DNA of 64,000 nt, taken from the NCBI GenBank assembly GCA_965208835.1, contig OZ242358.1:352001-416000 (forward strand), written 5' to 3'. Positions 18,162 through 36,200 of this stretch are shown here, in pieces (position 1 is the stretch's first letter; each line of letters starts with the position of its first letter). Below the pieces are notes generated by a model. It was not told where the DNA came from. It saw nothing but the letters and a program-made list of their open reading frames with translations, and searched no databases. This stretch comes from Candidatus Latescibacterota bacterium. Lineage in GTDB: Bacteria > Latescibacterota > UBA2968 > GCA-2709665. A program made the translations under genes and the position numbers.

Positions 18162-20489
18162 ATGGACCTCGCGAAGTTTGAGGACGATACGATAAACTCG
18201 GAACAGCTTCTTGTGGAATCCGAGCACGAAGAGAACGTCGATCTACCCGTTGACGCCGGGGACTGGCGGCGGGTGAACGAAGTTCGCGCTGAGGTGTATC
18301 TGCCTCCTGGCGCAAACGGTCTGCTCTGGTGCCGGTTGACGTCGGGCCATCGCACCGAGGGCATGAGCGAAGACGATGGCTATCTGTTCCACGCCATCGT
18401 CTCCCCGCGCGGCGGGAACCTCTGGGAGGGCTGGCGGGAATTTCGGTTTCCCGCGGAGTGTTTCTATACGCAGGGGATTCCTTCAGGTTGGAAAGAGACG
18501 CGATCGGCAACGCTGACCGGCCCGCAGGGCAGCCGGTTTCGCAACATTCGCCTGGTAGAGAGAGACGTGACGCCCGGTCCGCGTATGACGGATGAAGCCT
18601 TCATCGCCACACTGGACCCGGACCACCCCGGCCTGAAAATGCTGAAGGACTTGCCGGACGGATCCCTTCTGACGGAAGTCGCGAGGTATTTCCGGTCCAG
18701 CGGCTTCGACCGGGAACTGGTCCCGAGTGAACGGGAGCCGAATGCCGATCCCGATCAGGCCGACCGGGTCCTGGAAGGCAGGGTCCTGGGGCAGGACTGG
18801 TCGGCGGCTATCGACTGGGAGGCCAATCCAACGGGCTATATCGAATGGACGCTCGCCATCCACTATCTCCTGTTCCTGAGGCCTGCGATCGACGCGTACT
18901 GGGAAACCGGAGACGCAAAATATGCCAAGGGCATCGAGCGATACATCGCGGACTGGATGCGGCGCTGCCCGGTTCCCTACGGCGTTCGCGCCGGAGGATA
19001 CCCGTGGGGCCATTCGCTGGTGGTGGCCATCCGGCCATTCAGCACACTCGTGGACGTGTTCCGCGTGCTCTGCGCGTGTCCGGAGACCGATGACGCCACG
19101 ATCATCGACATGCTCAAGTCCATCTACGAGCATCAGGCCTGTCTGCTGCGTTTCCAGTCCTTCCCGCCCTCGAACAAGACCATTGCCGAGGCACGGACCA
19201 TTGCCGCGCTGGGCTGCGCTTTCCCCGAATTCAGAGACGCCGCAGGCTGGCGGGAAGAAGGCTATCGCCGGCTGCTGGACGACATGCGCGTGCAGGTGAT
19301 GCCGGACGGGGCGTCGTATGAACTCACGCCCGGTTACCAGATGAGCATTGCCACGTGGTTCCTCGAATCGTTTCAGGTTGCGCGAAAGTTCAACCATCCG
19401 CTCGACCCAGAACTGGAGGCGGGCATTCGATCTATGTTCGACTGGTGCGTGGCCATCACCCGCCCGGACTTCACCCGGCCCTCCGTCTCCGACGCCGGAA
19501 GCATGGACTCGAAGTATGACGATGCCCTGGCGCACCCGGGGCGCGTACTCGACAACCCGGCCGCGGTGTGGGTGGGCACCGGGGGCCGTGAGGGCGCGCC
19601 GCCGGAATATGAATCGATCGGCCTGCGCGACTCGGGCTATTTCATCATGAGGAGCGGCTGGGACCGGGACGCGCGATATCTCTTCTTCGAGGGGGGCCCT
19701 TACGGCCGCTGGCACCAGCACGAAGACAAACTCAGCTTTGAAGTCTATGCCTATGGCACGCCCTTTATCGTGGATCCCGGCATCACGTCGTACTACACCA
19801 ACCCCTGGACCCGGTTCTATACGACCACGCAGGCCCACAATACCGTCCTTGTGGACGGCCGGCCGCAGGCCCGGGGCCGCAATCAGACCATCGAACAGTG
19901 GACCCGTTCCGCCCGCGATTCGACATTCTGGCATTCTGATGATGATTCCGACGTCGCCGCGGCGAGTTACGACGCGCCATACGCAGATCTGGATGTGGCG
20001 GTCCGGCATCGCCGCGCTGTGATTTTCGTCAAACCGGATTATTTCATGGTCTTCGATGAACTGACGGGCGACGGCAGCCATACGTACGAGGCATTGTTCC
20101 ACTTCATGCCGTTCCGTCTGCTGACGGATTCTGAAACCGGCGCCGTCCGAACCGGGCGTATGGATGCACCCAACCTGGAGTTGATTCCACTGACCCGGAT
20201 GACGCCCCGGCTGGTCTGCGGCCAAAACGACCCGGTCCAGGGCTGGCTGGCGGTTAGCGGGCAGGACGTGCCGGCGCCAGTGGCCATATACAGAAGAAGG
20301 ACGCGGCTCCCGTTCCGGACAGGGTACGTGATATATCCCTTCGGCACGGACCGCGTCACCGCGGGAATCACGACAGAAACCGTACGGCGCGCGAACGTGT
20401 GGTCCGTCAACGTCGACCACGCCGACGGAAGGCGGGACCGCGTGCGAATGGACTGGGATGACGAGGCAGGACCGGCGTTATTGCGGTGA
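18162..20489 (+). CDS. Heparinase II/III family polysaccharide lyase
   Basis: QVMPDGASYELTPGY, DSGYFIMRSGW, HQHEDKLSFE, DPG..Y and AHNTVLVDG motifs. Confidence 0.88.
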   Translation: MDLAKFEDDTINSEQLLVESEHEENVDLPVDAGDWRRVNEVRAEVYLPPGANGLLWCRLTSGHRTEGMSEDDGYLFHAIVSPRGGNLWEGWREFRFPAECFYTQGIPSGWKETRSATLTGPQGSRFRNIRLVERDVTPGPRMTDEAFIATLDPDHPGLKMLKDLPDGSLLTEVARYFRSSGFDRELVPSEREPNADPDQADRVLEGRVLGQDWSAAIDWEANPTGYIEWTLAIHYLLFLRPAIDAYWETGDAKYAKGIERYIADWMRRCPVPYGVRAGGYPWGHSLVVAIRPFSTLVDVFRVLCACPETDDATIIDMLKSIYEHQACLLRFQSFPPSNKTIAEARTIAALGCAFPEFRDAAGWREEGYRRLLDDMRVQVMPDGASYELTPGYQMSIATWFLESFQVARKFNHPLDPELEAGIRSMFDWCVAITRPDFTRPSVSDAGSMDSKYDDALAHPGRVLDNPAAVWVGTGGREGAPPEYESIGLRDSGYFIMRSGWDRDARYLFFEGGPYGRWHQHEDKLSFEVYAYGTPFIVDPGITSYYTNPWTRFYTTTQAHNTVLVDGRPQARGRNQTIEQWTRSARDSTFWHSDDDSDVAAASYDAPYADLDVAVRHRRAVIFVKPDYFMVFDELTGDGSHTYEALFHFMPFRLLTDSETGAVRTGRMDAPNLELIPLTRMTPRLVCGQNDPVQGWLAVSGQDVPAPVAIYRRRTRLPFRTGYVIYPFGTDRVTAGITTETVRRANVWSVNVDHADGRRDRVRMDWDDEAGPALLR

Positions 20490-23042: not shown

Positions 23043-24572
23043 ATGGCTATCACGCGAAAAAGACTCACGCCGGCTATCGTCGGCTTTTTCGTCTCCGCCT
23101 GCACCCTCGCGCCGCGTTCAGCGCCGCCGGTCGCTGAATCGGTTTCCGAGCTGACCGACGGATCCGCAGGGGGTGAAGTCTCTGTCTCAATCCAGCGCCG
23201 GGAATGGTGGAAATCCTTCGCCGACCCGGCCCTGAACGGGATAATCGAGAACGTGCTGGAATCGAACTTCGACCTGGCGGCCGCGGTCGCCCGGGTCGAT
23301 CAGGCCAGGGCGCGCGCACGCATCGCCAGGGCGCCCCTGTTCCCGTCGATTCAGCCGACAGCCGGCGTCAACGAATTCGACGCACCCACAAACGCGGGCA
23401 TCGGAGCGCAGCTGGACGAACTGGGAGTGGGTTCGGGAGGTGGCGGCGTGCCGCGAATCGCCCTCCCCGATCGACTCGGGCTGACGACTTACACGGTCGG
23501 TGCGGAATTCGCGTATGAACTGGACTTCTGGGGCCGGAATCGCAACGACGGTCTCGCCGCGGGAGCCGAGCGCCTGGCATCCGAGTCGGACTATCTGACG
23601 GCCAGGATGGGCGTTCTGGCCGAAACCGTCCGGACCTACCTTGAAATTGTCAACCTGCGGCGCCAGCAGAGGCTGGCAACGGAAATAGCAGAGGTCTCCC
23701 GCCAAAGGGAGTCGCTTGCGGAGTCCCGATACAACCGTGGGCTGACCGACGTGAGCGGCCTCCACAGGGCGCGGCAGGATGCGCGAGGCGCACAGGCCGA
23801 ATTGCCGCAGATTGTTGCTCTGCTGGCCAACGCGGAGGGGCGGCTCCGGGTGCTTATGGGAGACCACCGCGTGGACCTCGCGCGATTGCTGTCTGATTCT
23901 CTGGCCACCGACGGGGCCCTGCAGCCTGTTCCGGCGGGCATTCCGACCCGCCTTCTGGCGCAGCGTCCCGACGTCGTCGCGGCAAAGCAGCGGTTGGAAG
24001 CCGCCCGATACCAGGTCGGCGCCCGTCGCGCGGACCTGGCGCCGAGACTGTCTCTTCACGGATCCATCGGGCTGCAGAGTACGGAGTCGAGCGAGTGGTT
24101 CAACCCGGAGCAATGGTTCCGCAATCTGAGCATGAACCTGCTCGGACCCGTCTTCCAGGGCTCTCGTCTTCGCGGCAATCTCGCGCTCGCGAAAGCCAGA
24201 ATGAAAGAAGCCGTCGCGGCCTACGGGAGATCCGTGGTCACCGCTGTCAACGAGGTTGAAGCCGCGCTTGCAGGCCTGGCGGCCAGCCGCAGGCGTCATT
24301 CTCTGCTGAGCTCTCAATCGAATGCGGCTCAATCGGAAGAAGAACTGCAGGAGCAACGGTATGTTTCGGGTGTGATTGACTATGTGGCGTTACTGACCGC
24401 GATGCAGGTCCGGCTGACGGCGGAATCCTTGCTTGCAGCGTCGGACCGCGACCTGGGTCTGGCCCGACTTGCCCTGCACCGGGCGCTGGGAGGCGCGTGG
24501 ACCCCCGACGCCCGCCAGGCCTTCGGGCCGGAACCGCCGAGCCAACGCATCTCCCGACCTCCAACGGAGTAG
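23043..24572 (+). CDS. RND efflux outer-membrane lipoprotein (NodT/TolC family)
   Basis: Lipobox VSAC from ATG 23043; WWKSF.DP.L, YELDFWG, LLAQRPDV and LHRALGG motifs. Confidence 0.92.
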   Translation: MAITRKRLTPAIVGFFVSACTLAPRSAPPVAESVSELTDGSAGGEVSVSIQRREWWKSFADPALNGIIENVLESNFDLAAAVARVDQARARARIARAPLFPSIQPTAGVNEFDAPTNAGIGAQLDELGVGSGGGGVPRIALPDRLGLTTYTVGAEFAYELDFWGRNRNDGLAAGAERLASESDYLTARMGVLAETVRTYLEIVNLRRQQRLATEIAEVSRQRESLAESRYNRGLTDVSGLHRARQDARGAQAELPQIVALLANAEGRLRVLMGDHRVDLARLLSDSLATDGALQPVPAGIPTRLLAQRPDVVAAKQRLEAARYQVGARRADLAPRLSLHGSIGLQSTESSEWFNPEQWFRNLSMNLLGPVFQGSRLRGNLALAKARMKEAVAAYGRSVVTAVNEVEAALAGLAASRRRHSLLSSQSNAAQSEEELQEQRYVSGVIDYVALLTAMQVRLTAESLLAASDRDLGLARLALHRALGGAWTPDARQAFGPEPPSQRISRPPTE

Positions 24573-24578
24573 AACGTC

Positions 24579-25790
24579 ATGTCCCGCATATCCAGCATCC
24601 TGATTTCCGTCGCGATTGTCGTGTTTTCGGTGGGTCTGGCTGCTCTAATGGTTTCACTGGCGCCCGAACCGACGCGGACCGAACAGCCTCCCCAGATTCC
24701 GTACGTTCAGACGGGTTGGGTTTTGGCCGGGTCCGGATCCATACCGATTTTCGGGTCCGGTACCGTGCGTCCCGGCGCGGAGGTCGATATCGTTCCTCAG
24801 GTGAGCGGCAGGGTGGTCTGGGTGGATCCGGGATTCAAGAGCGGCGGCCGGGTAACGGCCGGGCAACCCATGTTCCGGATCGAAGAGGTCCACTATCAAT
24901 TCCGGGTGGAGGAAGCGGAAGCCAATCTTGCGGCCAGCCGGGTGGCATTGCTCAGGGAACAGGAACAGGCATCCATTGCCCGCTCCCAGTACGAACTCTA
25001 CGCGCGGCAGCGGGGGGACGAGGCTTCGCCATCCGATACGAATCCTCTCACGCTGAGAGAGCCCCAGTTGAACGCGGCGAGGGCGGCGCTGAATCGCGAC
25101 GAAGCCAGGCTTGCCGACGCCAGACTCGCCCTGTCCAGAACCCGGATGACCGCGCCTTTCAACGGCGTGGTGCGCGAGGAATTCGTGGACCGGGGAAAGG
25201 TCGTCAGTCCCGGCCAGCCGGTGGGCCGGCTGTTTGCCGCGGACGCGGTGGAAGTGGTCGTACCCCTGACCGACGGCAACGCCGCCCTCATTCCGGACCT
25301 GTGGCGACTGAAGGCGGGTGACGGCAATCGAGACGTGGCTGCCCGGGTGGTCGCCCGGTACGGCGACGCGAAATACGAATGGGAAGGCTACGTGGATCGA
25401 GCCGAGGCAGCCCTTGACGAGCAATCGCGCACCATCGATGTCATCGTGCGCGTACCGGGTCCGTTTTCCGCGGGCGTCCCGGCGACCGGGAACGTCAACC
25501 CAGGTGGTCATCCGCCACTGTTGGTGGGCAAGTTTGTCCAGGTGGAAATCGAGGGCAGGTTCGGGGAGGGCTTTTTCAGGATCCCACGGGCATCGCTGAA
25601 GCCCGGTAACGAGGTCTGGATGGTGAAGGGCGGCGCTGTGAATATCGTTCCGGTTCGGGTTTTGCAGCGTTCCAACGATGAGGCGTACGTGACGGGTTCG
25701 CTGGAACACGGTCTGGCGGCAATAACCGGCGGGATCCAGTTCGCAACGGACGGAATGCCCGTCCAGACGGAGACTGACGAGTCGCCATGA
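24579..25790 (+). CDS. RND periplasmic adaptor (membrane fusion protein)
   Basis: N-terminal TM segment, PQVSGRV, coiled coil, APFNGVV. Confidence 0.92.
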   Translation: MSRISSILISVAIVVFSVGLAALMVSLAPEPTRTEQPPQIPYVQTGWVLAGSGSIPIFGSGTVRPGAEVDIVPQVSGRVVWVDPGFKSGGRVTAGQPMFRIEEVHYQFRVEEAEANLAASRVALLREQEQASIARSQYELYARQRGDEASPSDTNPLTLREPQLNAARAALNRDEARLADARLALSRTRMTAPFNGVVREEFVDRGKVVSPGQPVGRLFAADAVEVVVPLTDGNAALIPDLWRLKAGDGNRDVAARVVARYGDAKYEWEGYVDRAEAALDEQSRTIDVIVRVPGPFSAGVPATGNVNPGGHPPLLVGKFVQVEIEGRFGEGFFRIPRASLKPGNEVWMVKGGAVNIVPVRVLQRSNDEAYVTGSLEHGLAAITGGIQFATDGMPVQTETDESP

Positions 25791-28700
25791 GTACGAACGA
25801 CGACATCCACGGCGAACGGCCCGGCCCGATCGCCTACATGGCCGGCAACAGCATTGCCGCCAATCTGTTGATGTGGGCTATCGTCGCCGCGGGGTTGGTT
25901 TCGCTGACCGGAATCGATCGGGAAGCGTGGCCCACCACGCCCTTCTACCATATCGAAGTCTCCATGGCCTATCCCGGCGCCACTCCGGAGGAGGTGGAGG
26001 AGTCGATCGTTGTCAAGATCGAGGACCGGGTCAGCGGTTTGGACGACGTCAAGGCGGTCAAGTCAGTGGCGGCGCCGGGTATCGCGTCCGTCAGAATTCA
26101 AATGAATTCCGGAACGGACATGGCCCGGGCCCTGGACGATATCGAGTCCGCGGTCAATCGCGTACAGTCTTTCCCCGCCGATGCCGATCGTCCCAGTTTC
26201 CGGGAGATGGATAACCGCATGAGCTTGATGCGGCTCATCGTCTACGGCGACGTGTCCGAGCGCTCGCTGAAGGAATTGGCGTATCAGATCGAGGATAAAC
26301 TCACGGCGCTTCCGTCCGTGTCCCAGGTCGAGATCAGTGGTGTTCGGGAATACGAGATCTCCATCGAGGTGCCGCTGCATCAGTTGAGGGCCCTCGGGCT
26401 TACTCTCAACGACGTTGCCAATACCATTCGTCGCAGTTCCCTGAATCTCTCTGCCGGCAGTATCGATACCCGGGAGTCCCAGGTGCGGATCCGGACCCTC
26501 GGCCAGAACTACGACCAGCAGGATTTCGAAGCAATCGTCCTTCTCAGCAAGAGTGACGGCACGGTATTGCGCGTTGGCGATATCGCCGAAGTCCGCGACG
26601 GATTTCAGGAAGCCGACCTGATTGTCCGGCATCAGAACCATCCCGCTGTATTCGTGGAGGTCTTCCGGGCCGATGGCGAACAGGTGATGGACGTCGCGAC
26701 GAACGTCCGGGAACATTTGAAAAACGAGGTGATCCCGGTGCTGCCGGACGGCGTGGGCGTCACCGTGTGGAATGACGAATCCCAAGTCTATGAGGAACGC
26801 GCCGGTCTCCTTATCAAGAACGGCATCCTGGGGCTGTTGCTGGTGTTGATCGCACTCAGCCTGTTTCTCGAAATCCGGCTTGCAATTTGGGTCGCCGTCG
26901 GCCTCGCCGTTTCGGGTATAGGCGCGCTGGCCGTCATGAATGCGCTCGACGTGGCGATCAACGAAATCAGCCTGTTTTCCTTCGTACTCGCCATAGGGAT
27001 CGTCGTCGACGACGCCATCGTCGTCGCCGAGCACATTCGATACGAACGCAGTCGGGGAACCCCCGGTGTTACGGCCGCGATCCGTGGTGTACGTCGGATA
27101 AAGGTGCCACTGACCTTCGCGGTCCTCACTTCGGTGGTCGCTTTCGTCCCGCTGCTGTTCATCCCCGGCGGCATCGGTGACGTATGGCGGGCCCTGCCGA
27201 TCGTCATGATCGCCATGTTATTGGTCTCCCTGGTCGAATCACTGCTGGTGCTGCCCAACCACCTGTCCCATTTGAAGGGTCCGGAATGGGTGCCGACCAG
27301 TGCTTTCGACCGGTTCTTCGCACGGATCCAGGGCCGTGTGAACGAGTTGTTGAACCGGTTCGTACAGGGTCCGCTGGACCGGGCGCTGCGGTTCGCGACG
27401 GATCAGCCCGCGATCACGATGGGGGGGGCCGTGGGTATGCTCGTGCTCAGCATCTCGCTGTTGCCGGCGGGAATCGTACCCACAACGCTGGCCGCTGACA
27501 TCGAGGGGGATTTCGCGACGGTCGTCCTGGAGATGCCCGATGGGACGACCGCCCCGAGGACGTACGAAGTGGCGCTGGAACTGGAGGCCGCAGGCCGCAG
27601 GGTCATCGAACGACTCTCGCGCGGCCGGCCCGGAGACGCGCCACCGCTGCTGACTGGCGTAACGGTTACCGTCGGTTTGGGATCGAGACTCGAGGGCGGG
27701 CTCAATCCGGCCCCCACCCTCAATCCCCAGGCCAACATCGCTACCATCGAGTTCAAACTCCTGAGTGCGCAGCAAAGGCAGATCTCATCCGGAGAGGTCG
27801 TGCAGGCATGGCGAGAAGAGGTGGGGGTGCTTCCTTACGTGCGCGGCGTCACCTTCAGCGGCGCGGTCTTTGACCTGGGCAACCCGGTCGAGGCCGTACT
27901 GTCGCATCCGGATCCGGATCTCCTTGCGCGGATTGCGAACGCTGTGGTCGACGGTCTCCGAGAAGTGGCAGGCATCCACGACATCCGGTCGGATCACACC
28001 CCGGGCATCCCGGAAATGCAGCTGGAGCTGCGGCCGGAGGCGCGGACGCTCGGTCTCACGCTCGATGCGCTGGCCGGGCAGGCGCGCGCCGCGTTCTTCG
28101 GCGCAGAGGCGGTTCGGGTGCAACGCGGCCGGGAAGAGGTCCGGGTCTACGTGCGCCTGCCCGAGGATGAGCGGAATTCCATTACCGATATCGAGGGGTA
28201 CCTGCTCCGTACACCGGGCGGGGCCGAGGTTCCGGTCATGAGTGTGGCCTCCCTGAATCCGGGGGTGTCACCGCCGGCCATTCGGCGGAAGGACGGCCAG
28301 CGCGTCGTCACGGTCACCGCGGATGTCGATGCTTCGGAGATTTCCGGCGACGAAGCCAACAACATTCTGGCCAATTCGATCCTCTCGGACCTGACCGCCT
28401 TGCACCCGGACCTGACATACAGCTTCGGAGGTGAACAGCAACAGCAACTCGATTCCCTGGATGCGCTGTACCGTGGGTTCGCGGTCGCGCTGATCATGAT
28501 CTTTGTTCTTCTCGCCATTCCGCTGCGATCCTACACCAAACCGTTTATCATCATGGTCGTGATCCCCTTCGGGTTCATCGGCGTGATCCTGGGCCACTGG
28601 GTTCTGGGAGTAGCTCTGAGCGCTGTTTCCTTCTTGGGTATCTTCGGCCTGAGTGGGGTGGTCGTGAACGATTCCCTGGTGATGATCGATTTCATCGATC

Positions 28701-28981
28701 AGAAACTCGGGGAAGGCGCGTCGGCAAGAACTGCGATTGTGGAGGGCGCCAAAGGACGCTTTCGTCCGATCATGCTCACTTCCGTGACGACGTTCCTCGG
28801 CTTCACGCCCCTCATTCTGGAGCGCGCCATCCAGGCCCAGTTCCTGATCCCCTTTGCCGCCTCGCTCGGTTGCGGCATTCTGTTCACCACGGCTATACTC
28901 ATGATGGTCGTTCCCGCGCTTTACACCATCCAACTGCGTCTGACTGCTTCGTGGGGCCGTTCCGGCGCCGGTACCACGTAG
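25787..28981 (+). CDS. RND efflux permease (AcrB/AcrD/AcrF family)
   Basis: YPGATPEEVE, GIVVDDAIVV, RFRPIMLTS; 1064 aa; ATGA overlap with the adaptor gene. Confidence 0.95.
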   Translation: MSTNDDIHGERPGPIAYMAGNSIAANLLMWAIVAAGLVSLTGIDREAWPTTPFYHIEVSMAYPGATPEEVEESIVVKIEDRVSGLDDVKAVKSVAAPGIASVRIQMNSGTDMARALDDIESAVNRVQSFPADADRPSFREMDNRMSLMRLIVYGDVSERSLKELAYQIEDKLTALPSVSQVEISGVREYEISIEVPLHQLRALGLTLNDVANTIRRSSLNLSAGSIDTRESQVRIRTLGQNYDQQDFEAIVLLSKSDGTVLRVGDIAEVRDGFQEADLIVRHQNHPAVFVEVFRADGEQVMDVATNVREHLKNEVIPVLPDGVGVTVWNDESQVYEERAGLLIKNGILGLLLVLIALSLFLEIRLAIWVAVGLAVSGIGALAVMNALDVAINEISLFSFVLAIGIVVDDAIVVAEHIRYERSRGTPGVTAAIRGVRRIKVPLTFAVLTSVVAFVPLLFIPGGIGDVWRALPIVMIAMLLVSLVESLLVLPNHLSHLKGPEWVPTSAFDRFFARIQGRVNELLNRFVQGPLDRALRFATDQPAITMGGAVGMLVLSISLLPAGIVPTTLAADIEGDFATVVLEMPDGTTAPRTYEVALELEAAGRRVIERLSRGRPGDAPPLLTGVTVTVGLGSRLEGGLNPAPTLNPQANIATIEFKLLSAQQRQISSGEVVQAWREEVGVLPYVRGVTFSGAVFDLGNPVEAVLSHPDPDLLARIANAVVDGLREVAGIHDIRSDHTPGIPEMQLELRPEARTLGLTLDALAGQARAAFFGAEAVRVQRGREEVRVYVRLPEDERNSITDIEGYLLRTPGGAEVPVMSVASLNPGVSPPAIRRKDGQRVVTVTADVDASEISGDEANNILANSILSDLTALHPDLTYSFGGEQQQQLDSLDALYRGFAVALIMIFVLLAIPLRSYTKPFIIMVVIPFGFIGVILGHWVLGVALSAVSFLGIFGLSGVVVNDSLVMIDFIDQKLGEGASARTAIVEGAKGRFRPIMLTSVTTFLGFTPLILERAIQAQFLIPFAASLGCGILFTTAILMMVVPALYTIQLRLTASWGRSGAGTT

Positions 28982-29012
28982 TGCACTTCATGACGCAGGG
29001 AGGCGAAAACCG

Positions 29013-31040
29013 ATGGCTGATTCTACCGAGGATCCGACGACTCAACCGCTGACTTTGACTCAAGAACTCATCCTGATGCTTCTCAATGAGGAGACCGGTT
29101 ACTTCCACCAGGTCCCCGGCTGGGATTTGCACTGCGCTGTTGTCGGCGCCGTGCTTGCGGAACTTTCACTCCGGTCCCGCATTGACACGGACGCGGAGTC
29201 CCTGTTCCTCCTCGACCAGACGCCAACGGGCAATTCCACCATCGATCCCATACTGAAAGAAATCGCAAGCGAGTCAAATCAGCAGAATACCCAGTACTGG
29301 ATCGAGCGGCTGGCTTCCCGTGCAGAGTCGATCGTTGATTCGGTTCTGGACCGCTTGGTAGAAATGAAGATCCTGGAACACCACGACGGCGAGTTCTGGA
29401 CGTTGGCCCGTACCGACTGGAAGATGGGATTGCACAGCGACGACGATACGGGCACCGCGAATCAGTACATCAGAACGCGGATCAGTCGGGCGATCTTCAT
29501 GAACGAGATACCCGACCCGAGAGACGTCATAATCATCTGCCTCGTCAATACGTGCGACGTATTTCGGTACATTTTCCAACTCGACGACGAGACGGAGCAG
29601 CGCATCGAGTTCATCTGCAAGATGGACGAGATCGGGCGTTCAATATCAGAAGCGGTCTCCCACAATCTCGCTGGCCCGATGCTTCGACGTCCCGTGCTTA
29701 CCCGGAAGATTCCGAAGGTTTCGCTACGCAAGCTGGTGCTAAACCCACATGTTCTAGACGGGAACGTAAATGCGCTATTTGCGGATCTTGCGCAGGAATA
29801 CGGCCCGGTGTTTGAGATCCGTCCTCCGTTCGCCAAGCCCATGATCTTCCTTGCGGGACTCGAGGCAAACCGCTGGGTGCATAAGCACGGGCGCATGTAC
29901 CTGAGAGCCAAGGACTACTTCAGCGACTTCGAGAAGGTCTACGGCGCGTCCGGCCTCTTGCCTTCCCTGGACGGCGCCGATCACTTCCGGCTTCGCAAGT
30001 CCTTGTCGCCAGCGTATTCTCGCGGCAGACTGGAAGGGCAGATGGACCAGCTCTACCAGAATGCGCGGAATTACATGGCAAGCTGGAACGTTGGAGACGC
30101 CTATACTGCCACGTCCATGTGCCGGCAGATGGTGAACGCCCAACTCTCGCCACTGTTTATTGGTGTCGACAGCCAGGATCTCATGGACGATCTGATGAAA
30201 TACAAGGAACGGGCGCTCAGCGTTCACATCGCCAGGATGTTGCCAAAATTCACGCTGAACACCCCAGGCATGAGACGCCGGGCGAAAACCCTCGATACGC
30301 TGATGGAGCGAATCGAGGGGGTCCATACCCCCGCCCAACGGGCCGAAAGTCCGCGGGATCTCGTGGACGAGTACCTGAGCCTGCACGCGAGTGACCCGCA
30401 GTTCCTCCCGGAGTCCAACCTGCGGTTTGCCTTTTCCGCAGCGTTGATCGCCAGCGTGTACCTTGGCGATACGTTCAGCCTGGTCGTTTACGCGATGGCG
30501 TCGCAGCCTGCCCTTTGCGAGAAAATCCGAAATGAAGCCGATGCCATGTTCGAGAACGGCGATCCGGATGCCGAGGCCTTCACGCCATCCGCGATTGACG
30601 TCACGCATCGCTTCCTCATGGAGTGTATGCGCATGTACCCAATCGTTCCCATGTCCATTCGAAACGTGATGAATACGTGTGTGTTCGAGGGTTACGAACT
30701 GCCGTTGGGGGAACGCATCCACATCGCGATGACCGCCGCGCATTACATGAGCGACGTCTTTCCTGACCCGAACACCTTCGACATCGACCGCTACCTGCCG
30801 CCGCGACACGAGCATCGCAGCCCCGGGTACGCTCCGTACGGACTGGGCACGCATATGTGTCTCGGCACACGCTGGATGGAATTGCAACTTGCTGTCAACT
30901 TGCTGTTGCTGACGCACTATTTCAAGATCGAAATGTCGCCAGCCAACTATAAGCTGCGGTTCAATCCGTTTCCGTCGTTGAAACCTAGCAAGAAGCTGAA
31001 GTTCCGGATTACCGAACAGCGACGGGAACTGTTCGACTGA
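29013..31040 (+). CDS. Cytochrome P450 fused to an N-terminal GPP34/GOLPH3-like domain
   Basis: N-terminal LTLTQELILMLLNEETG...GAVLAELSLRSRI...W...LVEMKIL (GPP34 pattern); C-terminal ECMR (ExxR), FPDP..FDIDRY and PYGLGTHMCLG heme motif. Confidence 0.88.
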   Translation: MADSTEDPTTQPLTLTQELILMLLNEETGYFHQVPGWDLHCAVVGAVLAELSLRSRIDTDAESLFLLDQTPTGNSTIDPILKEIASESNQQNTQYWIERLASRAESIVDSVLDRLVEMKILEHHDGEFWTLARTDWKMGLHSDDDTGTANQYIRTRISRAIFMNEIPDPRDVIIICLVNTCDVFRYIFQLDDETEQRIEFICKMDEIGRSISEAVSHNLAGPMLRRPVLTRKIPKVSLRKLVLNPHVLDGNVNALFADLAQEYGPVFEIRPPFAKPMIFLAGLEANRWVHKHGRMYLRAKDYFSDFEKVYGASGLLPSLDGADHFRLRKSLSPAYSRGRLEGQMDQLYQNARNYMASWNVGDAYTATSMCRQMVNAQLSPLFIGVDSQDLMDDLMKYKERALSVHIARMLPKFTLNTPGMRRRAKTLDTLMERIEGVHTPAQRAESPRDLVDEYLSLHASDPQFLPESNLRFAFSAALIASVYLGDTFSLVVYAMASQPALCEKIRNEADAMFENGDPDAEAFTPSAIDVTHRFLMECMRMYPIVPMSIRNVMNTCVFEGYELPLGERIHIAMTAAHYMSDVFPDPNTFDIDRYLPPRHEHRSPGYAPYGLGTHMCLGTRWMELQLAVNLLLLTHYFKIEMSPANYKLRFNPFPSLKPSKKLKFRITEQRRELFD

Positions 31041-31044
31041 CGAA

Positions 31045-32115
31045 ATGGCTCCTTGTGGAGCCAGGGGGAAACACCACAAAATGCGGCTGGGCAAACTATC
31101 AAGAGCGCCGGGAGATTCGTACCGGGGATCGGGCGTCGCAAGTCGAGTGCGGCACTTCGACGGCTGGCTCGAACGGGCGGCGACGGAGCCCGGTGACGTG
31201 GGCGGGTACGATCACACTGAAACAGTGAAAGACTATTACGACCTTTGCAGCGGGTTCATGGTGTGGGGCTGGGGCGAGTCCCTGCACTTCGCGCCTCTCA
31301 CGCCTGATGAGAGTGTGGAAGCGTCCATGGTCCGGCATCAGCGGTGGATGATCTCCAAGTTGGAGCTGCAACAGGGTATGACGGTGGTCGACGTCGGTTG
31401 TGGAGTCGGCGCCCCCATGCGCCGCGTCGTCCGCGAGGCTGGTGTCAGGGTTGTAGGAATCAACATCAATGAGATCCAGTTGGAAGAAGCGAAAAGGTTG
31501 AACGCCGAGGCGGGGCTCGATCACATGGTCGATTTCGAGACGTGCAGCTTCATGGACATGGGCGCCATCGAGGACGACACCTTCGACCGGGGTTATGCCA
31601 TAGAGTCAACGTGCCATGCGCCGGACAAGCAGCGCGCCTTCGCGGAGATCTTCCGCGTGCTGAAACCCGGTGCCCTGTTCTGGGGCCAGGAAATGTGTCT
31701 CACGGACAGGTTCGATCCGAAAGACGAGCGGCACCAGGCCATCAAGCAGGATCTCATGCGCGGCATTGCGCTGAAGGACATCGCGACCTTCGGGGAAGTG
31801 AATCGCGCGCTCGGAGCCGCGGGATTCCAAGTCATGGAAGGGATGGACCGAGACGTCCAGAAGGGACCCTCCACGCCTTGGTATCAGCCCATGGAGAGTC
31901 GCCATGGGACGTTGGGGAACACCTTGCGCAGGCTTCCGTGGGGCCGCAAGGCGGTCATCGCAGGATTGCAGCTGGCGGAAGTACTGCGGCTCTTTCCGAA
32001 GGGCTCCACGGAAGTCGTCCGACTCCTGGACCGGACCGCGGAGGCTTACGTGGCGGGTGGCAAGGCGGGTATCTTCACGCCGTTGTACTGTTTCCTGGCC
32101 CGCAAGCCTCTTTAG
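31045..32115 (+). CDS. Sterol C-24 methyltransferase (ERG6/SMT-like)
   Basis: YYD...WGWGESLHF (region I), DVGCGVGAP (SAM), YAIESTCHAP (region III), EIFRVLKPG (region IV), C-terminal IFTPLYCFLARKP. Confidence 0.88.
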   Translation: MAPCGARGKHHKMRLGKLSRAPGDSYRGSGVASRVRHFDGWLERAATEPGDVGGYDHTETVKDYYDLCSGFMVWGWGESLHFAPLTPDESVEASMVRHQRWMISKLELQQGMTVVDVGCGVGAPMRRVVREAGVRVVGININEIQLEEAKRLNAEAGLDHMVDFETCSFMDMGAIEDDTFDRGYAIESTCHAPDKQRAFAEIFRVLKPGALFWGQEMCLTDRFDPKDERHQAIKQDLMRGIALKDIATFGEVNRALGAAGFQVMEGMDRDVQKGPSTPWYQPMESRHGTLGNTLRRLPWGRKAVIAGLQLAEVLRLFPKGSTEVVRLLDRTAEAYVAGGKAGIFTPLYCFLARKPL

Positions 32116-32388
32116 GCCCGCCAGAAGCGCCTGCACGCAGGACCCTCAGGCCTGGGCTCTCCTGAACCGCCAGCCGTACATGATGCGCCAGTAATAGTTG
32201 AAGGAGTAACTTGCCGCGGCATCCTCGAAGTGGCAGTCCGTCCGGGAGATGAATCGTTGCGTGTGAGCCTGTCGGTACACGTCTGACAGGTTCTATTTTT
32301 ATATCAGCGTCGATGTAGGGGCAACCCTTGTGGTTGCCCTCCCGCCATGCAGACAACAACACGACAGCGAAACGGATAAAGGGTACCT

Positions 32389-33768
32389 GTGACGGAGAAA
32401 ACCATGCCGCGGCGTATCGCCATTGTCGGCGGAGGGATTTCAGGACTGGGGGCCGCCTGGGCGCTGCATCATCATCCGGACCGGTTTGATTTTCGCCTGT
32501 TCGAGGCCCAGGACCGGATTGGAGGGAATGCGGTAACGGCCGATATGCCGCAGAACGACGGCAGCTCCATTCCCTTCGACATTTCCGTCACGGCCTGTAT
32601 TCCGTCGGTATATCGGCACGTGATGTTGATGATGGAAACGTTCGGCATCGAACTGATCGATACCCGGTTCAGCTATAGCGTGAAGTACCGCGGCCGTGTC
32701 TATGCCCACGATTTCGACTCGGATATCCGGGACCAGCTGCAACTCGAGATTGGGAAGTTTCAACGGGTCTTGAAGCGTCTGCATCGGTTCGGTTGGCTGA
32801 CCCGTTCCGAGTCAAAGTTTCTGAACGCCCTCAATCCGTTCAACTACATCAGCATGCGGACGGTTCTGAATCTCGGCGGTTTTTCCGCGGACTTCAGGTA
32901 CAAGGTACTGAAGCCCATGTTTGTCAACTTTCTGATGGCGACGAACGTATTCGACATGCCCGCGGCGCTCTTCGGGAGGTATCTCGAATTTTTCGACATC
33001 GAAACCGCCACGCCCATGCAGACGTGGGACCGGGGAACACGACGCATCTATGAGAACCTGTCAGCCGACTTCAGAGAAAGGATATACTTCAACCGTCCTG
33101 TCCAAAAGGTGTACCGTCGAACCGAAAATGTGGTGATCGAGGACGAGGACGGGGTAAGGGAGACGTTCGACGAGGTGATCTTCGCGTGCAATGCGAACCA
33201 GACACTGATGATGCTGGATAAACCCACATTGCTGGAACGGTACATACTCTCGTCCATACGTTACGAAAGCGAACTCCACAACCACACGATTGTCCACTCC
33301 GACGCTTCAGTCCTTCCTGACAATGAAGTGAAACCCCTGACCACGCGAAGCAATCACATCGAACAATACGGCGTCAGACCGGACAATTATGAAATCACGT
33401 ACATCATGCACAACCAGCAGCCGTGGGCGAAACGGTCTGACAGGCCCTGTCTGGTGACCTACAACCCGATCAGCCGGATCGATGAAAAAAAGATCATCGG
33501 AAGGTGGTGGTTCCAGCACATTGTGCACGACGTGCGCCACGTTGCCCTGCTCGTTCCACTGTTCCGCTTCATTCAGGGCAGGAAACGGACCTGGCACTGC
33601 GGGGCGCACACGCTGATCAACAGCCAGGAGACATGTTTCGTCAGCGGGCTTGCCGCAGCAACGCAGATCGGCGCGGACTATCCCTTCGAAGATCACGAAG
33701 CAAGACGGTCGTTCAACTACTATGGGAGCATCCTGTATGGGTGGGGGTTCAGGAAGGCGAGGGGCTGA
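32389..33768 (+). CDS. FAD-dependent oxidoreductase (COG2907 / amine-oxidase-like)
   Basis: IAIVGGGISG, FEAQDRIGG, FDEVIFAC, HSDASVLP and IQGRKRTWHCGA motifs. Confidence 0.8.
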   Translation: MTEKTMPRRIAIVGGGISGLGAAWALHHHPDRFDFRLFEAQDRIGGNAVTADMPQNDGSSIPFDISVTACIPSVYRHVMLMMETFGIELIDTRFSYSVKYRGRVYAHDFDSDIRDQLQLEIGKFQRVLKRLHRFGWLTRSESKFLNALNPFNYISMRTVLNLGGFSADFRYKVLKPMFVNFLMATNVFDMPAALFGRYLEFFDIETATPMQTWDRGTRRIYENLSADFRERIYFNRPVQKVYRRTENVVIEDEDGVRETFDEVIFACNANQTLMMLDKPTLLERYILSSIRYESELHNHTIVHSDASVLPDNEVKPLTTRSNHIEQYGVRPDNYEITYIMHNQQPWAKRSDRPCLVTYNPISRIDEKKIIGRWWFQHIVHDVRHVALLVPLFRFIQGRKRTWHCGAHTLINSQETCFVSGLAAATQIGADYPFEDHEARRSFNYYGSILYGWGFRKARG

Positions 33769-33816
33769 AGGCGTCCGACGATATTTGGGAACGGACAATC
33801 GCCCGCGCGGCGTCGA

Positions 33817-34887
33817 TCAGGCCTTTGGAGGTTCCGGATAGAACTGCCGGCAATATCGGCGGTAGGTGCCGATGGGGCCGTCTGCCCGACAGAGCCTTGG
33901 GGGCGACCGATGCCGTTTCTTTTCCCAGATCACGACGTCCTGCAGCACATCCCGTTTCTGCTGCAAAAGCAGAATGTGATTCATCAGCCGCTGGCGCAGC
34001 TTCATGGGTAAGAAACCGAGACCCGTGATGAACCGCCCGGGCTTTCGGAACTCCCGCAGTTGGCTGACCAGGACAAGATCGATGAGGGTGCCATCGATGG
34101 GCGTAGGAAGTACCCACAATCTCGCGCGCATATCGATGGTCTTCTCGTGGATTTCGACGAAGGAGTAGCCGAGTCCATGGATGTGGGTAATGGCGGAGAT
34201 TTCGTACACGAGGTCTATCATACCCAGGATGCCGCGGACGCGTCTGAAGTCGAAGCAACTCTTCAGGTAGGCGCCGTCCACGGTAACCGAACCCACCGGA
34301 TTCACCTTGTCGTAGCCGTGTACATACCGAAGGTGTCCCAGATCCACTGAGTTTTCGGCCGTTTCCTGGGGATGGCTGCGGAATCGGAGACGTCGGAATC
34401 CCAGTTTACTCCACTCGGCGCCGGTGGGCGGCTCACCCGGAAGATCCCAGTGCGCGGGCCTGTTGCCGTTCCCGTACCACGCGAAGACGAGGCCAAAGAT
34501 CTCTCTGGTTTCGTAGACCTTGAGTTTCGCGGCTCTGGGCGCCGGGGCGTTCGGTGTCGCCACGCATTGGCCGGTTGCATCGAACTCGAATCCGTGAAAT
34601 GGACAGACCAGGCGTCCGTCGCAAACCCTCCCGCCAACGTCCGGCCCCAGCGATGAGCCCAGGTGGGGGCAAATAGAGTCGGCCACGCAAACACGGCCCT
34701 CCTCGTCGCACCAGGCAACGATTTTTTCTCCCATCCAGGTCTTCTCTACCAGCTTCTCTCGCAGAAGGGACTCCCGCGTCTCTACCAGATACCAACCTTC
34801 GGGGAACGGGGGCAGATGATCAGCACCGGCCGCGCCCGGTTCTCTGGCCAACCTTTCCTGTGTCTCTGGCGATCCTGTTGAAGCCAT
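33817..34887 (-). CDS. Rieske oxygenase, KshA / cholesterol 7-desaturase (Neverland/DAF-36)-like
   Basis: FPEGWY; CPH...CPFH Rieske ligands; ENSVDLGHLRYVH Fe site; DVVIWEKK...L...DGPI..YRRY..QFY C-terminus. Confidence 0.85.
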   Translation of the reverse strand: MASTGSPETQERLAREPGAAGADHLPPFPEGWYLVETRESLLREKLVEKTWMGEKIVAWCDEEGRVCVADSICPHLGSSLGPDVGGRVCDGRLVCPFHGFEFDATGQCVATPNAPAPRAAKLKVYETREIFGLVFAWYGNGNRPAHWDLPGEPPTGAEWSKLGFRRLRFRSHPQETAENSVDLGHLRYVHGYDKVNPVGSVTVDGAYLKSCFDFRRVRGILGMIDLVYEISAITHIHGLGYSFVEIHEKTIDMRARLWVLPTPIDGTLIDLVLVSQLREFRKPGRFITGLGFLPMKLRQRLMNHILLLQQKRDVLQDVVIWEKKRHRSPPRLCRADGPIGTYRRYCRQFYPEPPKA

Positions 34888-34916
34888 GCGAGCCCGATCC
34901 TCCTGATCCCGCGCTA

Positions 34917-36200
34917 CTACCACGCCTTCAGCGCATCCCTGAACAGCGCTGCCAGGTCCTCTCTTCCGGCGGGCCTCGGCGACAGCTTGGTCACGCGGTG
35001 CTGGGGCAGCGTGCCCTCCACCAACGCCGGCACGTCGGCTTCCGTAAACCCGATCGCGGAAAGTCCGTTGGGCATTTCGAGACGCTTCATCAGCACGACG
35101 ATGCGGTCGGCGAGGATCCCTCCCGCCTCCGTCTCAGGGTCCTTCACCCCGGAAATGTCCGCGCCCAGCAGTTGCGCGGCCTTGAGATGGCGTTCCGGGC
35201 ATGCAGGACCGGTAAACCGGAAGGAGGCCGGCGCGTTCAGGAAAACCGACATCCCATGGGGCACGATGGGATGGTCGCTTACCATCCCATCCGGCCGGTA
35301 ATCCTGCACCATCCCCGAGACGGGATAGGACATCCCGTGAGGGAGATGAACGCCCGCGTTGCCGAAGCCCATCCCAGCCATGCTCGATGCCAGAATCATA
35401 TTCGACCTCGCCTCGTCATCATCCGGATCCGCAACCGCGCGCACGATGTTTTCCGCGACGAGTTCGATGGCCCGGATCGCCCACATGTCGCTGATGGGAT
35501 TGGTGCCCTGGTAAGCCGGCCGCAGAATCGGCCGTTCGGGCAATGGCCGCTGGTCGTAAGGAATCGCCGTATAAGACTCCAGCGCGTGGCAGAGCACATC
35601 CAGGCCCGTCGAGGCCGCAACAACGGGCGGCATGGTTCGCGTATTCTCAGGATCCACAATGCCCAGCGACGGTTTCAGGCGGCGGTGGGCGATGCCGGTC
35701 TTGACGTGTTTTGCGGAAATATCGAATATCGTGACACCCGTGGTCTCGCTGCCGGTTCCGGCGGTCGTCGGAATCGCGATCAGCGGCTTGAGCGCGCCGG
35801 GAACCGGCTTGCCGCTGCCGATCGGGGCGTTCACGTACGCGTAGAAATCATCGGGAAAGGTGGAATAGAGATTCGCGGCTTTTGCCGTATCGATGGAGGA
35901 ACCGCCGCCCACGGCAACGAACGCATCGAAGTTTCCATCCAGCGCAAAGTCGATGGCTTCCTGAAACGAAACGTCCGTGGGTTCGACCCTAACACGGTCA
36001 TAAAGCGCGTAATCGACCCCCTCGCTCTTGAGGGATTCGACCGCCGTCCGCACAGGCGGCAGGTCCACGAGATTGGGGTCCGTTAACAGCATCACCCGCC
36101 TGGCGCCCAGTTCGGACAGATCCATGCCCACTTCCCTTGTCGCGCCCGGTCCGAACCGCAAGTTCGAAGTTCCCATCTCAAACGCGAAATCGGTCTGCAT
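34917..36200 (-). CDS. Hydroxyacid-oxoacid transhydrogenase (Fe-ADH family)
   Basis: VRVEPTD.SF, GGGSSIDTAKAANLY, YVNAPIG.G, GFGNAGVHLPHGMSYPVSG. Confidence 0.9.
   Translation of the reverse strand: MQTDFAFEMGTSNLRFGPGATREVGMDLSELGARRVMLLTDPNLVDLPPVRTAVESLKSEGVDYALYDRVRVEPTDVSFQEAIDFALDGNFDAFVAVGGGSSIDTAKAANLYSTFPDDFYAYVNAPIGSGKPVPGALKPLIAIPTTAGTGSETTGVTIFDISAKHVKTGIAHRRLKPSLGIVDPENTRTMPPVVAASTGLDVLCHALESYTAIPYDQRPLPERPILRPAYQGTNPISDMWAIRAIELVAENIVRAVADPDDDEARSNMILASSMAGMGFGNAGVHLPHGMSYPVSGMVQDYRPDGMVSDHPIVPHGMSVFLNAPASFRFTGPACPERHLKAAQLLGADISGVKDPETEAGGILADRIVVLMKRLEMPNGLSAIGFTEADVPALVEGTLPQHRVTKLSPRPAGREDLAALFRDALKAW

Follow-up and report, generated by a model that had tools for sequence, protein, structure and literature searches.

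Proteins that join a GPP34 domain to a cytochrome P450 (the GPP34_L form) are described, in the main text of one study, as a monophyletic group that is confined to sponge symbionts and expressed in a sponge metatranscriptome, and GPP34 is proposed there to be a secreted effector that binds phosphatidylinositol 4-phosphate (PI4P) and acts in phagocytosis (PMC11706023, Microbiome 2025). Bacterial sterol methyltransferases (SMTs) from sponge metagenomes, according to the main texts of two further papers, are active and share their clusters with homologues of erg and sdmAB (Brown et al. 2023, PMC10070321), and ERG24-CYP51-LSS clusters ("CSGs") have spread by horizontal transfer and are enriched among the symbionts of Ircinia (Kelly et al. 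2022, PMC9531527). Here we describe a gene cluster from a Candidatus Latescibacterota bacterium, at positions 23043-34923 of a 64,000-nucleotide stretch of contig OZ242358.1 (the window), in which a GPP34-P450 fusion, an SMT-family methyltransferase, a Rieske oxygenase and a flavoprotein stand beside a tripartite pump of the resistance-nodulation-division (RND) superfamily. On balance, and with considerable doubt, we lean towards the view that the window carries one copy of a horizontally spreading sterol-tailoring and envelope-transport module of sponge-associated bacteria, with GPP34-P450 as its hub and exogenous sterols as its substrates.

The fusion in the window shares with the published GPP34_L proteins the two-domain architecture and the spread over many phyla, and its relatives include metagenome-assembled genomes (MAGs) with sponge- or coral-derived names (Ca. 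Palauibacter irciniicola, Ca. Poriferihabitaceae). The difference lies in context: a secreted effector is proposed in the main text of PMC11706023, whereas the protein is here the hub of a cluster of SMT, Rieske, flavoprotein and RND or MMPL genes, some copies of which lie beside an oxidosqualene cyclase (OSC). None of the words sterol, methyltransferase, MMPL, efflux, lipid, operon or synteny occurs in that main text, and its flank analysis covers the short GPP34 form only, remarking on a nearby P450 alone; the main text of PMC10070321 mentions no P450, RND or Rieske protein. The published sterol clusters resemble ours in combining an SMT-family gene with sterol-type oxygenases, in occurring in sponge bacteria and in their proposed horizontal transfer (PMC10070321, PMC9531527, main texts), and two of the loci compared here (L038 and L056) carry such a cluster beside the fusion. 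They differ in that the window's genome and 28 of 35 carriers are without a strong cyclase match, which speaks against de novo synthesis, in that the window SMT has a non-canonical Region I, and in that an exporter and GPP34-P450 are integral to the module. De novo sterol biosynthesis was rejected as the role of the window cluster, no OSC or squalene epoxidase being present in the genome. The initial annotation, made from the sequence alone, knew of no description of the gene combination. Its parts are in print, the fusion in PMC11706023 and bacterial SMTs in PMC10070321, as far as their main texts go. The claim stands for the linkage: we found no publication joining GPP34 or GPP34-P450 to sterol genes in a search that left out most subscription journals and the supplements of PMC10070321, PMC9531527 and PMC11706023, which may bear on the point.

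Gene order and spread of the cluster

Seven genes had been named in the initial annotation, and open reading frames (ORFs) and profile matches confirm all of them with the domains it gave. Coordinates are window positions unless a locus or genome label precedes them; L and G labels denote the loci and genomes compared, G000 being the window's own genome. The forward strand encodes the outer-membrane factor (OMF) of the pump, of the NodT family (23043-24572; alternative ORF start 22965), the periplasmic adaptor or membrane fusion protein (MFP; 24579-25790), the AcrB-type, HAE1-like RND inner-membrane permease (25787-28981), the 675-aa GPP34-P450 fusion of the GPP34_L form (29013-31040), the divergent SMT-family methyltransferase (31045-32115, a 356-aa ORF) and an amine-oxidase-family FAD flavoprotein (32389-33768). 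The gene for a KshA-like Rieske non-heme-iron oxygenase (33817-34923) lies on the reverse strand, convergent with the flavoprotein gene. As first reported, the OMF, MFP, RND and fusion genes are spaced by 6, -4 and 31 bp, the MFP gene overlapping the RND start by 4 nt. The reported 4-bp gap between fusion and SMT holds for the ORF as called and widens to 40 bp if Met13 (31081) is the start; this is the probable start because most homologues have 344 aa, the length obtained when translation begins 36 nt further downstream.

Relatives of the cluster were collected by a scan with the fusion protein over one genome per GTDB species, which yielded 69 loci at 59-86% identity, all of them in MAGs, from six phyla or more. 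By record title these MAGs belong to Gemmatimonadota (several of them Candidatus Palauibacter), Latescibacterota, Dehalococcoidia/Chloroflexota, Acidimicrobiales, Nitrospira/Nitrospirales, Alpha- and Gammaproteobacteria (Arenicellales, Ca. Poriferihabitaceae) and Rhodothermales. Neighbors were called by tblastn with the window proteins and two MMPL representatives (E ≤ 1e-15, an identity of 35% or more, and one segment spanning 40% or more of the query). A full fusion match was present in 67 loci (not in L072 and L073), accompanied by a transporter in 56, the Rieske protein in 51, the SMT in 46 and the flavoprotein in 24, the last at 73-95% identity and including copies directly after the fusion in Nitrospirales. 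Both flanks extend for at least 5 kb in 56 loci, and among these an RND-superfamily transporter was found in 51, Rieske in 43, SMT in 37 and flavoprotein in 21; at least one of the three enzymes accompanied the fusion in 53 of these loci, and all three in 12.

Gene order, whose loss, together with a lack of sterol turnover, would have counted against the initial annotation, is kept across loci. Loci labeled Gemmatimonadota or Latescibacterota read OMF-MFP-RND-fusion-SMT-(TPR protein)-Rieske-flavoprotein, those of Acidimicrobiales fusion/MMPL/Rieske/SMT, those of Dehalococcoidia fusion/SMT/MMPL/Rieske and those of Nitrospirales fusion/flavoprotein; in Proteobacteria the fusion occurs with MMPL, and LolA-like and weakly DUF1302-like proteins are encoded in the locus, not always adjacent. 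This comparison confirmed that the cluster is a real conserved unit and not a chance neighborhood. The TPR-repeat protein, of 268 aa, is encoded between SMT and Rieske at L006:13152-13958 (+) and in 10 other loci; these 11 loci form one Gemmatimonadota-type clade, and the gene is absent from the window.

The type of transporter differs by lineage yet remains adjacent to the fusion. Loci labeled Gemmatimonadota or Latescibacterota carry the tripartite pump; in the window its adjacent genes encode an OMF (OEP 150 bits; TIGR01845 259.5 bits, cut-off 210), an MFP (TIGR01730 141.8 bits, cut-off 94.9) and a permease with 12 transmembrane (TM) segments (ACR_tran 534 bits); the RND_permease subfamily models stay below their cut-offs (422 vs 1250), and therefore no named pump family applies. 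The permease is 82-95% identical in 32 loci labeled Gemmatimonadota, Latescibacterota, Rhodothermales or unclassified, and its gene lies directly upstream of the fusion in all of them except the Rhodothermales locus L026; the OMF gene likewise keeps its place in related loci, with copies 61-88% identical. MMPL proteins of 786-828 aa stand in for the tripartite pump in Dehalococcoidia, Acidimicrobiales and Proteobacteria. They match the sterol-sensing-domain model (43.3 bits), Patched, HAE3 and HpnN, and weakly BstA, at scores far below the equivalog cut-offs (HpnN 100-108 vs 751.85 bits; BstA 36 vs 1400 bits). The cluster thereby shows a likeness to the envelope transporters BstA and HpnN, of which HpnN carries hopanoids to the cell's own envelope; the difference is that the window's own transporter is an AcrB-type tripartite pump and that the MMPL relatives are no equivalogs by score. 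Judged from these genomes, the constant feature is the fusion beside an RND-superfamily lipid transporter suited to the host envelope, together with a variable set of the three tailoring enzymes. Several of the Acidimicrobiales loci L047-L050, L057 and L059 hold a second MMPL gene followed by genes for an acyl-CoA dehydrogenase and an MpaB/Lcp-type oxygenase, in some of them with an aldehyde dehydrogenase gene further on, the whole set lying a few kb upstream of the fusion; it may be a lipid-oxidation extension of the module.

The identity of the cluster genes does not track that of HemB, which argues for horizontal spread. HemB, encoded in the window at 16652-17644 (-), is 74-75% identical in 7 of 35 genomes, 48-57% identical in 27 and unmatched in one, and the cluster genes are 60-95% identical across phyla. 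Thus G001 (L008) combines 57% for HemB with 90% for RND, 86% for the fusion, 81% each for flavoprotein and Rieske and 77% for SMT; G012 (L023) has HemB at 75%, RND at 82%, fusion at 75% and Rieske at 81%; and a Dehalococcoidia genome (L027) has HemB at 52%, fusion at 72% and SMT at 70%. Within the window's genus, a full-length fusion is present in 11 of 14 other genomes at 51-85% identity, and the other three have only a short GPP34 gene. One same-genus genome with a 52% allele is rearranged, with Rieske, fusion and then the pump on the opposite strand, and no SMT or flavoprotein gene lies within 9 kb of that locus. Compared with L017, the window's RND, SMT, flavoprotein and flanking genes are 91-96% identical and its fusion only 79%; the window fusion groups instead with the L066/L008/L006 clade (86% identical; SH-aLRT 97 in a 61-row tree), so that the window cluster is a mosaic. 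In that tree the labels cluster by phylum, with at least two changes for Chloroflexota and with Gemmatimonadota and Latescibacterota interleaved. These patterns indicate that the module crossed between phyla a few times and was then inherited vertically, while related symbionts continue to replace alleles. As for signs of a mobile element, there is no tRNA gene in the window and no GC anomaly over the cluster; no integrase search was made.

Sterol genes beside the cluster and in its carriers

The connection with sterols is backed independently by Nitrospirales and Arenicellales MAGs, where a de novo sterol cluster lies next to relatives of the fusion and flavoprotein genes. The Nitrospirales locus L038 runs from the fusion through the flavoprotein (88% identity to that of the window), a protein of 244 aa without assignment, a cyclase fusion, a P450 and ERG4_ERG24 to an SdmA-like Rieske protein. 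The cyclase fusion (L038:14613-18020, -) is a 1135-aa protein that unites a squalene epoxidase (FAD_binding_3 + SE; SE 78 bits) with an oxidosqualene cyclase (SQHop_cyclase_N/C 166 + 179 bits, NCBIfam osq_cycl 724 bits). Its neighbors are a CYP51-like P450 with the CYP51 signature AGQHTS in its I-helix, an ERG4_ERG24 match of 242 bits and a Rieske protein that reaches 405.6 bits against the SdmA profile. A cyclase of this long family is also encoded in L037 and in L056, an Arenicellales locus that reads fusion-MMPL-flavoprotein-unknown-SMT-cyclase, and PF13243 matches of similar score lie in 1137-1184-aa open frames of three more of 35 genomes.

Genome-wide repertoires were counted in these 35 complete or long cluster-bearing genomes. 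Sterol_MT_C is present in 30, ERG4_ERG24 in 17 and HpnC above its cut-off in 18, and a strong cyclase match in seven. Six of the seven have matches resembling squalene-hopene cyclase (421-485 bits) and four an OSC-type fusion, three having both; the remaining carriers comprise two genomes with cyclase matches of 34-37 bits and 26 with none. Since 30 of 35 carry Sterol_MT_C and only seven a strong cyclase, most carriers hold sterol-type tailoring genes without the means to make the ring system. Gene content, the cross-phylum neighborhood, mobility, the de novo sterol genes that flank the module in some lineages and the lack of cyclases in most carriers are direct observations on these genomes.

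The initial annotation had found no squalene epoxidase or OSC in the window, and the same is true of the entire genome, a single 5.18-Mb contig that is 97.8% complete. A genome-wide check for a squalene-hopene or oxidosqualene cyclase returned PF13243 at 24.9 bits, below cut-off, and nothing for PF13249; squalene epoxidase (PF08491) was likewise without a match. Because the genome cannot cyclize squalene, a sterol substrate must come from outside the cell. The genome holds two copies of Sterol_MT_C, one of KshA_C, two of GPP34 and two of p450, one of each inside about 6 kb; 14 control genomes gave no match to Sterol_MT_C, GPP34 or ERG4_ERG24 and none above cut-off to KshA_C, with one below it in Corynebacterium glutamicum. 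The second SMT gene (L004:10522-11547, -, equivalent to G000:C1:704522-705547; Sterol_MT_C 86 bits) is canonical, with Region I FEFGWGRSFHF (Phe at 81 and 83) and Region II DLGCGVGGP, and stands alone between a gene with a HepII_C (heparinase-II-like) domain and an ApbE gene. This locus, the second P450 (L074) and the short GPP34 gene (L075) lie in unrelated contexts and so do not form a second sterol locus. An ERG4/ERG24-family sterol reductase (108.8 bits; L076:7767-8906, -, or G000:C1:419767-420906) is encoded 3.8 kb past the window's end. An HpnC-HpnD-HpnE operon (L077:6495-9603, -, or G000:C1:2438495-2441603), with HpnC at 319, HpnD at 313 and HpnE at 390 bits, all above the NCBIfam cut-offs, lies in this genome without cyclase or epoxidase, which probably makes squalene.

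Enzymes of the cluster and neighboring genes

The fusion polypeptide combines GPP34 (PF05719, 104.8 bits, residues 15-215) with p450 (PF00067, 124.6 bits, residues 249-663), as GPP34_L proteins do, and is 59-86% identical to 67 full-length relatives. In an alignment of 61 relatives the heme ligand Cys616 and the ExxR residues E537 and R540 are invariant, as is the heme-ligand loop P-Y-G-L-G-T-H-x-C-L-G, and the two domains are about equally conserved, which suggests an enzyme under constraint. No signal peptide or TM segment was seen in the fusion. Its nearest solved structures by sequence are CYP120A1 and Methylococcus capsulatus CYP51 (E 1e-18), the latter a CYP51-ferredoxin fusion that differs in identity (about 18%), in lacking the A-S-x-Y-L-G-D I-helix and in having ferredoxin and not GPP34 as its partner. 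Identification of the P450 as a CYP51 was rejected: the window I-helix reads A-S-V-Y-L-G-D against AGHHTS, at 17-18% identity. The GPP34 domain aligns weakly with human GOLPH3 (E 0.003), whose residues W81 and R90 are presumably PI4P ligands; the Trp aligned to W81 is conserved in the fusion family, and the position of R90 is V, I or A in 60 of 61 members and a gap in the remaining one. We infer that the domain serves as a membrane- or lipid-docking module for the enzyme. The use of GPP34 as a module attached to oxygenases or transporters fits the rare GPP34+Rieske and GPP34+ABC-ATPase fusions noted in the main text of PMC11706023.

More distant GPP34-P450 paralogues, 33-35% identical to the window's, lie at L079:9038-12141, L080:7861-10994 and L083:6492-11012. 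By Pfam, Sulfotransfer_3 genes stand beside them, and in L079 a PhyH dioxygenase gene is also adjacent; this suggests a hydroxylate-then-sulfate module, and sulfated sterols are known sponge metabolites. By tblastn, no homologue of the window's SMT, Rieske, flavoprotein or pump lies near these paralogues, and the association with the sterol cluster is therefore shown only for the fusion subfamily of 51-86% identity.

In the methyltransferase, a C-terminal Sterol_MT_C domain (PF08498, 61.1 bits, cut-off 21.7) follows a class I S-adenosylmethionine methyltransferase fold (Methyltransf_11, PF08241, 65.3 bits), which is the arrangement of SMT/ERG6 proteins. According to a preprint, residues conserved in all functional SMTs include GWGxxFHF (84-91) and DxGxGxxGP (125-133), positions 81 and 83 are singled out, and GWGxxFHF is preceded by Y/F81-E-Y/F83 in all functional SMTs (Brown & Welander preprint 10.64898/2025.12.19.695621). 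The window enzyme has MVWGWGESLHF (M81-V82-W83...L89) in Region I and DVGCGVGAP in Region II. Among 45 cluster-linked homologues M81 occurs in 42, L89 in 42, V82 in 35 and W83 in 26, the canonical Y81 and F89 in three each, and position 132 is G in 29 and A in 16. Cluster-type SMTs score 57-64 bits on Sterol_MT_C compared with about 72-90 for most additional SMT copies in these genomes, and the window SMT is 42% identical to the canonical SMT of the same genome. The departures in Region I and the lower scores mark the cluster SMTs as a distinct subfamily. Judged by the preprint, they might fail to act on desmosterol or 24-methylenecholesterol; they may also differ in substrate or regiochemistry. 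Alkylation of sterol C-24, which the initial annotation gave as the reaction of SMTs, is thus left unproven for this enzyme, since a Region I of M81-V-W...L89 is not that of a canonical C-24 SMT. A 477-aa database protein (P0055), 82% identical to the window SMT, also has a KshA_C Pfam match and represents either an SMT-Rieske-fragment gene fusion or a gene-calling artefact.

The Rieske protein matches Rieske (61 bits) and KshA_C (74.8 bits), its CxH...CxxH and DxxHxxxxH motifs are visible in an alignment to 4qdf, and its best solved relatives are KshA proteins (E 1e-21, 80 bits). The initial comparison with KshA/Neverland enzymes is borne out for KshA by fold and metal motifs, with the restriction that the protein is only distantly KshA-like and is not SdmA. 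A close KshA orthologue was rejected on account of the distant match and because neither the cluster nor the scanned neighbors encode a KshB-type reductase, KshB being the reductase partner of KshA. SdmA was rejected at 40 bits on NF052579 (cut-off 600), and the protein is 24% identical to the SdmA-like Rieske of L038. Besides low similarity and the missing reductase, the cluster differs from the 3-ketosteroid 9α-hydroxylase KshA/KshB in its context: no other steroid-catabolic genes were seen nearby, and tailoring and export genes surround the Rieske gene here, whereas actinobacterial KshA belongs to steroid catabolism. The flavoprotein, for which the COG2907 of the initial annotation is a putative label, matches Amino_oxidase (54.9 bits) and NAD_binding_8 (46.4 bits); in NCBIfam it has N-terminal Rossmann-fold matches alone, and in the protein atlas it falls into generic "FAD-dependent oxidoreductase" clusters. 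An HpnE-like protein was rejected for lack of significant similarity to the genome's own HpnE, and LkcE is the best solved relative, over the full length (E 3e-26). By analogy with other pairs of a methyltransferase and an FAD protein, the flavoprotein could act on the double bond that methylation leaves behind, reducing or shifting it.

A gap of 273 bp separates the SMT and flavoprotein genes and contains a terminator-like hairpin (32265-32293, +; an 11-pair stem followed by a T-run), a possible end of the pump-P450-SMT transcription unit. The scan of the region for promoters and terminators gave no excess over shuffled expectation, with 13 terminator-like sites against 11.3 expected. Upstream of the Rieske gene lies a gene for an iron-containing alcohol dehydrogenase (34917-36200, -; Fe-ADH 146.9 bits, ADH_Fe_C 119.6 bits) that overlaps the Rieske start by 7 nt and has conserved copies (96-97%) in L017 and L021, the two closest loci, and in no others; it is a lineage-specific neighbor and probably lies outside the mobile core. 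The outer flanks are ordinary, with a sodium:solute symporter gene on one side and an EF-G-like GTPase gene on the other. Heparinase II/III-like genes near both SMT loci (window 18162-20489, +; L004:7683-10487, +) fit a host-associated bacterium that uses glycosaminoglycans. At 3159 aa, the open frame at 2-9478 (-) is very long, and it runs off the window start. Among sequencing runs, six holders of the stretch were found, none of them recorded as RNA.

Proposed function and competing explanations

What follows is a working model of the substrate, of the individual reactions and of where, and in which direction, the product would be transported. A sterol would reach the cytoplasmic membrane, in this genome from outside and most likely from the host. 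GPP34 would dock the soluble heme-thiolate domain on the membrane or its lipid, so that the P450 could oxidize or rearrange the sterol; the SMT-family enzyme would methylate an olefinic side-chain carbon, at a position that is not necessarily canonical, the KshA-like Rieske enzyme would hydroxylate or desaturate the ring system, and the amine-oxidase-type flavoprotein would desaturate or reduce a C-C bond. The presumably co-transcribed OMF-MFP-RND pump would then move the product from the inner membrane to the outer envelope or out of the cell, a role that an MMPL/HpnN-like transporter would take in lineages with another envelope. Export, as originally supposed, is one of two readings of this last step, since the pump may instead deliver lipid to the cell's own outer envelope.

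Several observations weigh against this model. In the SMT, F89 is replaced by L, Y/F81 by M and, in Region II, G132 by A, and the usual Δ24 sterols, or even sterols in general, may not be substrates of the enzyme. LkcE, the closest solved relative of the flavoprotein, acts on a polyketide amide and not on a sterol. The I-helix of the fusion P450 is A-S-x-Y-L-G-D in all 61 members, with Tyr483 and Asp486 invariant, and has no AGx(D/E)T acid-alcohol pair (CYP120 has AGHET at this place and CYP51 AGHHTS); ordinary monooxygenation is therefore not assured. P450s without the pair frequently work on peroxides or hydroperoxides, or rely on substrate-assisted chemistry, and the fusion may be of this kind. 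Among the cluster genes and scanned neighbors, neither the P450 nor the Rieske enzyme was seen to have a ferredoxin or reductase partner. Foldseek did rank lanosterol-bound Methylococcus CYP51 (7snm) as the top match of the predicted fusion structure, at 17-18% identity to its chains, but with a marginal preference over P450 BM3 (E 5e-14 vs 2e-13); the prediction is itself of moderate confidence (pLDDT 71.4, pTM 0.63; the other four models 47-59) and was not used to assign a P450 substrate. A nearby transporter is missing in five of the 56 well-flanked loci (L028, L037, L038, L042, L045) and all three enzymes in three (L039, L040, L045), and the phylum labels come from submitters' record titles, which may be inconsistent. 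Squalene from HpnCDE makes an endogenous non-cyclic isoprenoid substrate possible, AcrB-type pumps are generalists whose adjacency could reflect detoxification, and both the sterol activity of the cluster enzymes and the identity of the substrate are predictions from sequence.

Taken as a detoxification and efflux island, the cluster would encode enzymes that inactivate a toxic lipophilic compound of the host or its community (a steroid, terpenoid or similar) and an AcrB-type pump that expels it. The AcrB/HAE1-type tripartite pump, the strong horizontal spread with allelic replacement within the genus, as in a resistance island, and the presence of the module in genomes unable to make sterols all agree with this, as does the pairing of P450 and methyltransferase, which is common in xenobiotic handling. 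We nevertheless regard it as unlikely: fusion and flavoprotein stand in or beside de novo sterol genes in Nitrospirales and Arenicellales, a biosynthetic context, the adjacent transporter is of the MMPL/HpnN type in several phyla, and SMT-family enzymes are biosynthetic tailoring enzymes. That biosynthetic context also bears on the idea that the substrate is a lipid other than a sterol, be it squalene, another linear isoprenoid or long-chain unsaturated fatty acids, with the "SMT" methylating an isolated double bond and the flavoprotein reducing or desaturating. There are precedents: squalene is methylated by SMT-like enzymes of Botryococcus, and in mycobacteria the route to 10-methyl fatty acids combines a methyltransferase and an FAD protein. 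The genome's HpnC, HpnD and HpnE without a cyclase, the non-canonical sterol-binding Region I and a flavoprotein in the amine-oxidase family, to which phytoene desaturases and HpnE belong and whose Pfam model the genome's HpnE also matches, would suit such a role. A non-sterol substrate is nonetheless distinctly unlikely, because HpnC exceeds its cut-off in just 18 of 35 carriers, so that squalene is not a universal endogenous substrate, because the flavoprotein and the genome's HpnE show no significant similarity, and because Sterol_MT_C, KshA_C, transporters with sterol-sensing-domain matches and adjacency to OSC, CYP51, ERG24 and SdmA-like genes point to sterols.

The interpretation in print is that a secreted, PI4P-binding GPP34 protein blocks phagosome maturation in sponge cells, in which case its neighbors would be unrelated to it; it is proposed in the main text of PMC11706023, where the gene neighborhood is not weighed. 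The eukaryote-like nature of GPP34, the restriction of the fused form to sponge symbionts and the conserved residue aligned to GOLPH3 W81 are compatible with it. As a full account of the protein it appears very improbable to us, given the absence of an N-terminal signal peptide or TM segment, the fusion to a heme-thiolate enzyme with invariant catalytic Cys and ExxR, the near-universal replacement at the R90 position and a gene 31 bp after the RND permease and 4-40 bp before the methyltransferase, in an arrangement kept across phyla. The effector and sterol readings are not mutually exclusive.

A bolder form of the sterol-tailoring model can be given, and we grant it little chance of being right in full: GPP34-P450 would be the core enzyme, not a phagocytosis effector, of a pan-phylum mobile module through which host sterols are taken up, rebuilt and handed back or displayed, the M81/L89 SMT alkylating, for example, C-26 or Δ25 sterols, and P450, Rieske enzyme and flavoprotein rebuilding the nucleus. 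If this were true, part of the "sponge-specific" sterols, including precursors of 26-methyl and 24-isopropyl steranes, would be made in the holobiont by bacteria without a sterol pathway of their own.

The components of the cluster are of known kinds; what is new is their assembly, its occurrence without sterol synthesis, the divergent SMT subfamily and the rereading of GPP34-P450 as a metabolic enzyme. GPP34-P450, a striking marker of sponge symbiosis for which a speculative effector role was the only published interpretation, thereby gains a biochemical context. With its altered sterol-binding region, the cluster SMT subfamily is a candidate for unconventional alkylation chemistry, and the findings bear on the dispute whether bacteria could be a source of "sponge" sterane biomarkers. 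Surveys of sterol-active bacteria that require an OSC would miss these carriers, because the SMT family is present in 30 of the 35 and a strong cyclase in seven. The module is also a clear case of a multi-gene metabolic unit common to at least six phyla in one host-associated community, with the transporter swapped to suit the recipient envelope.

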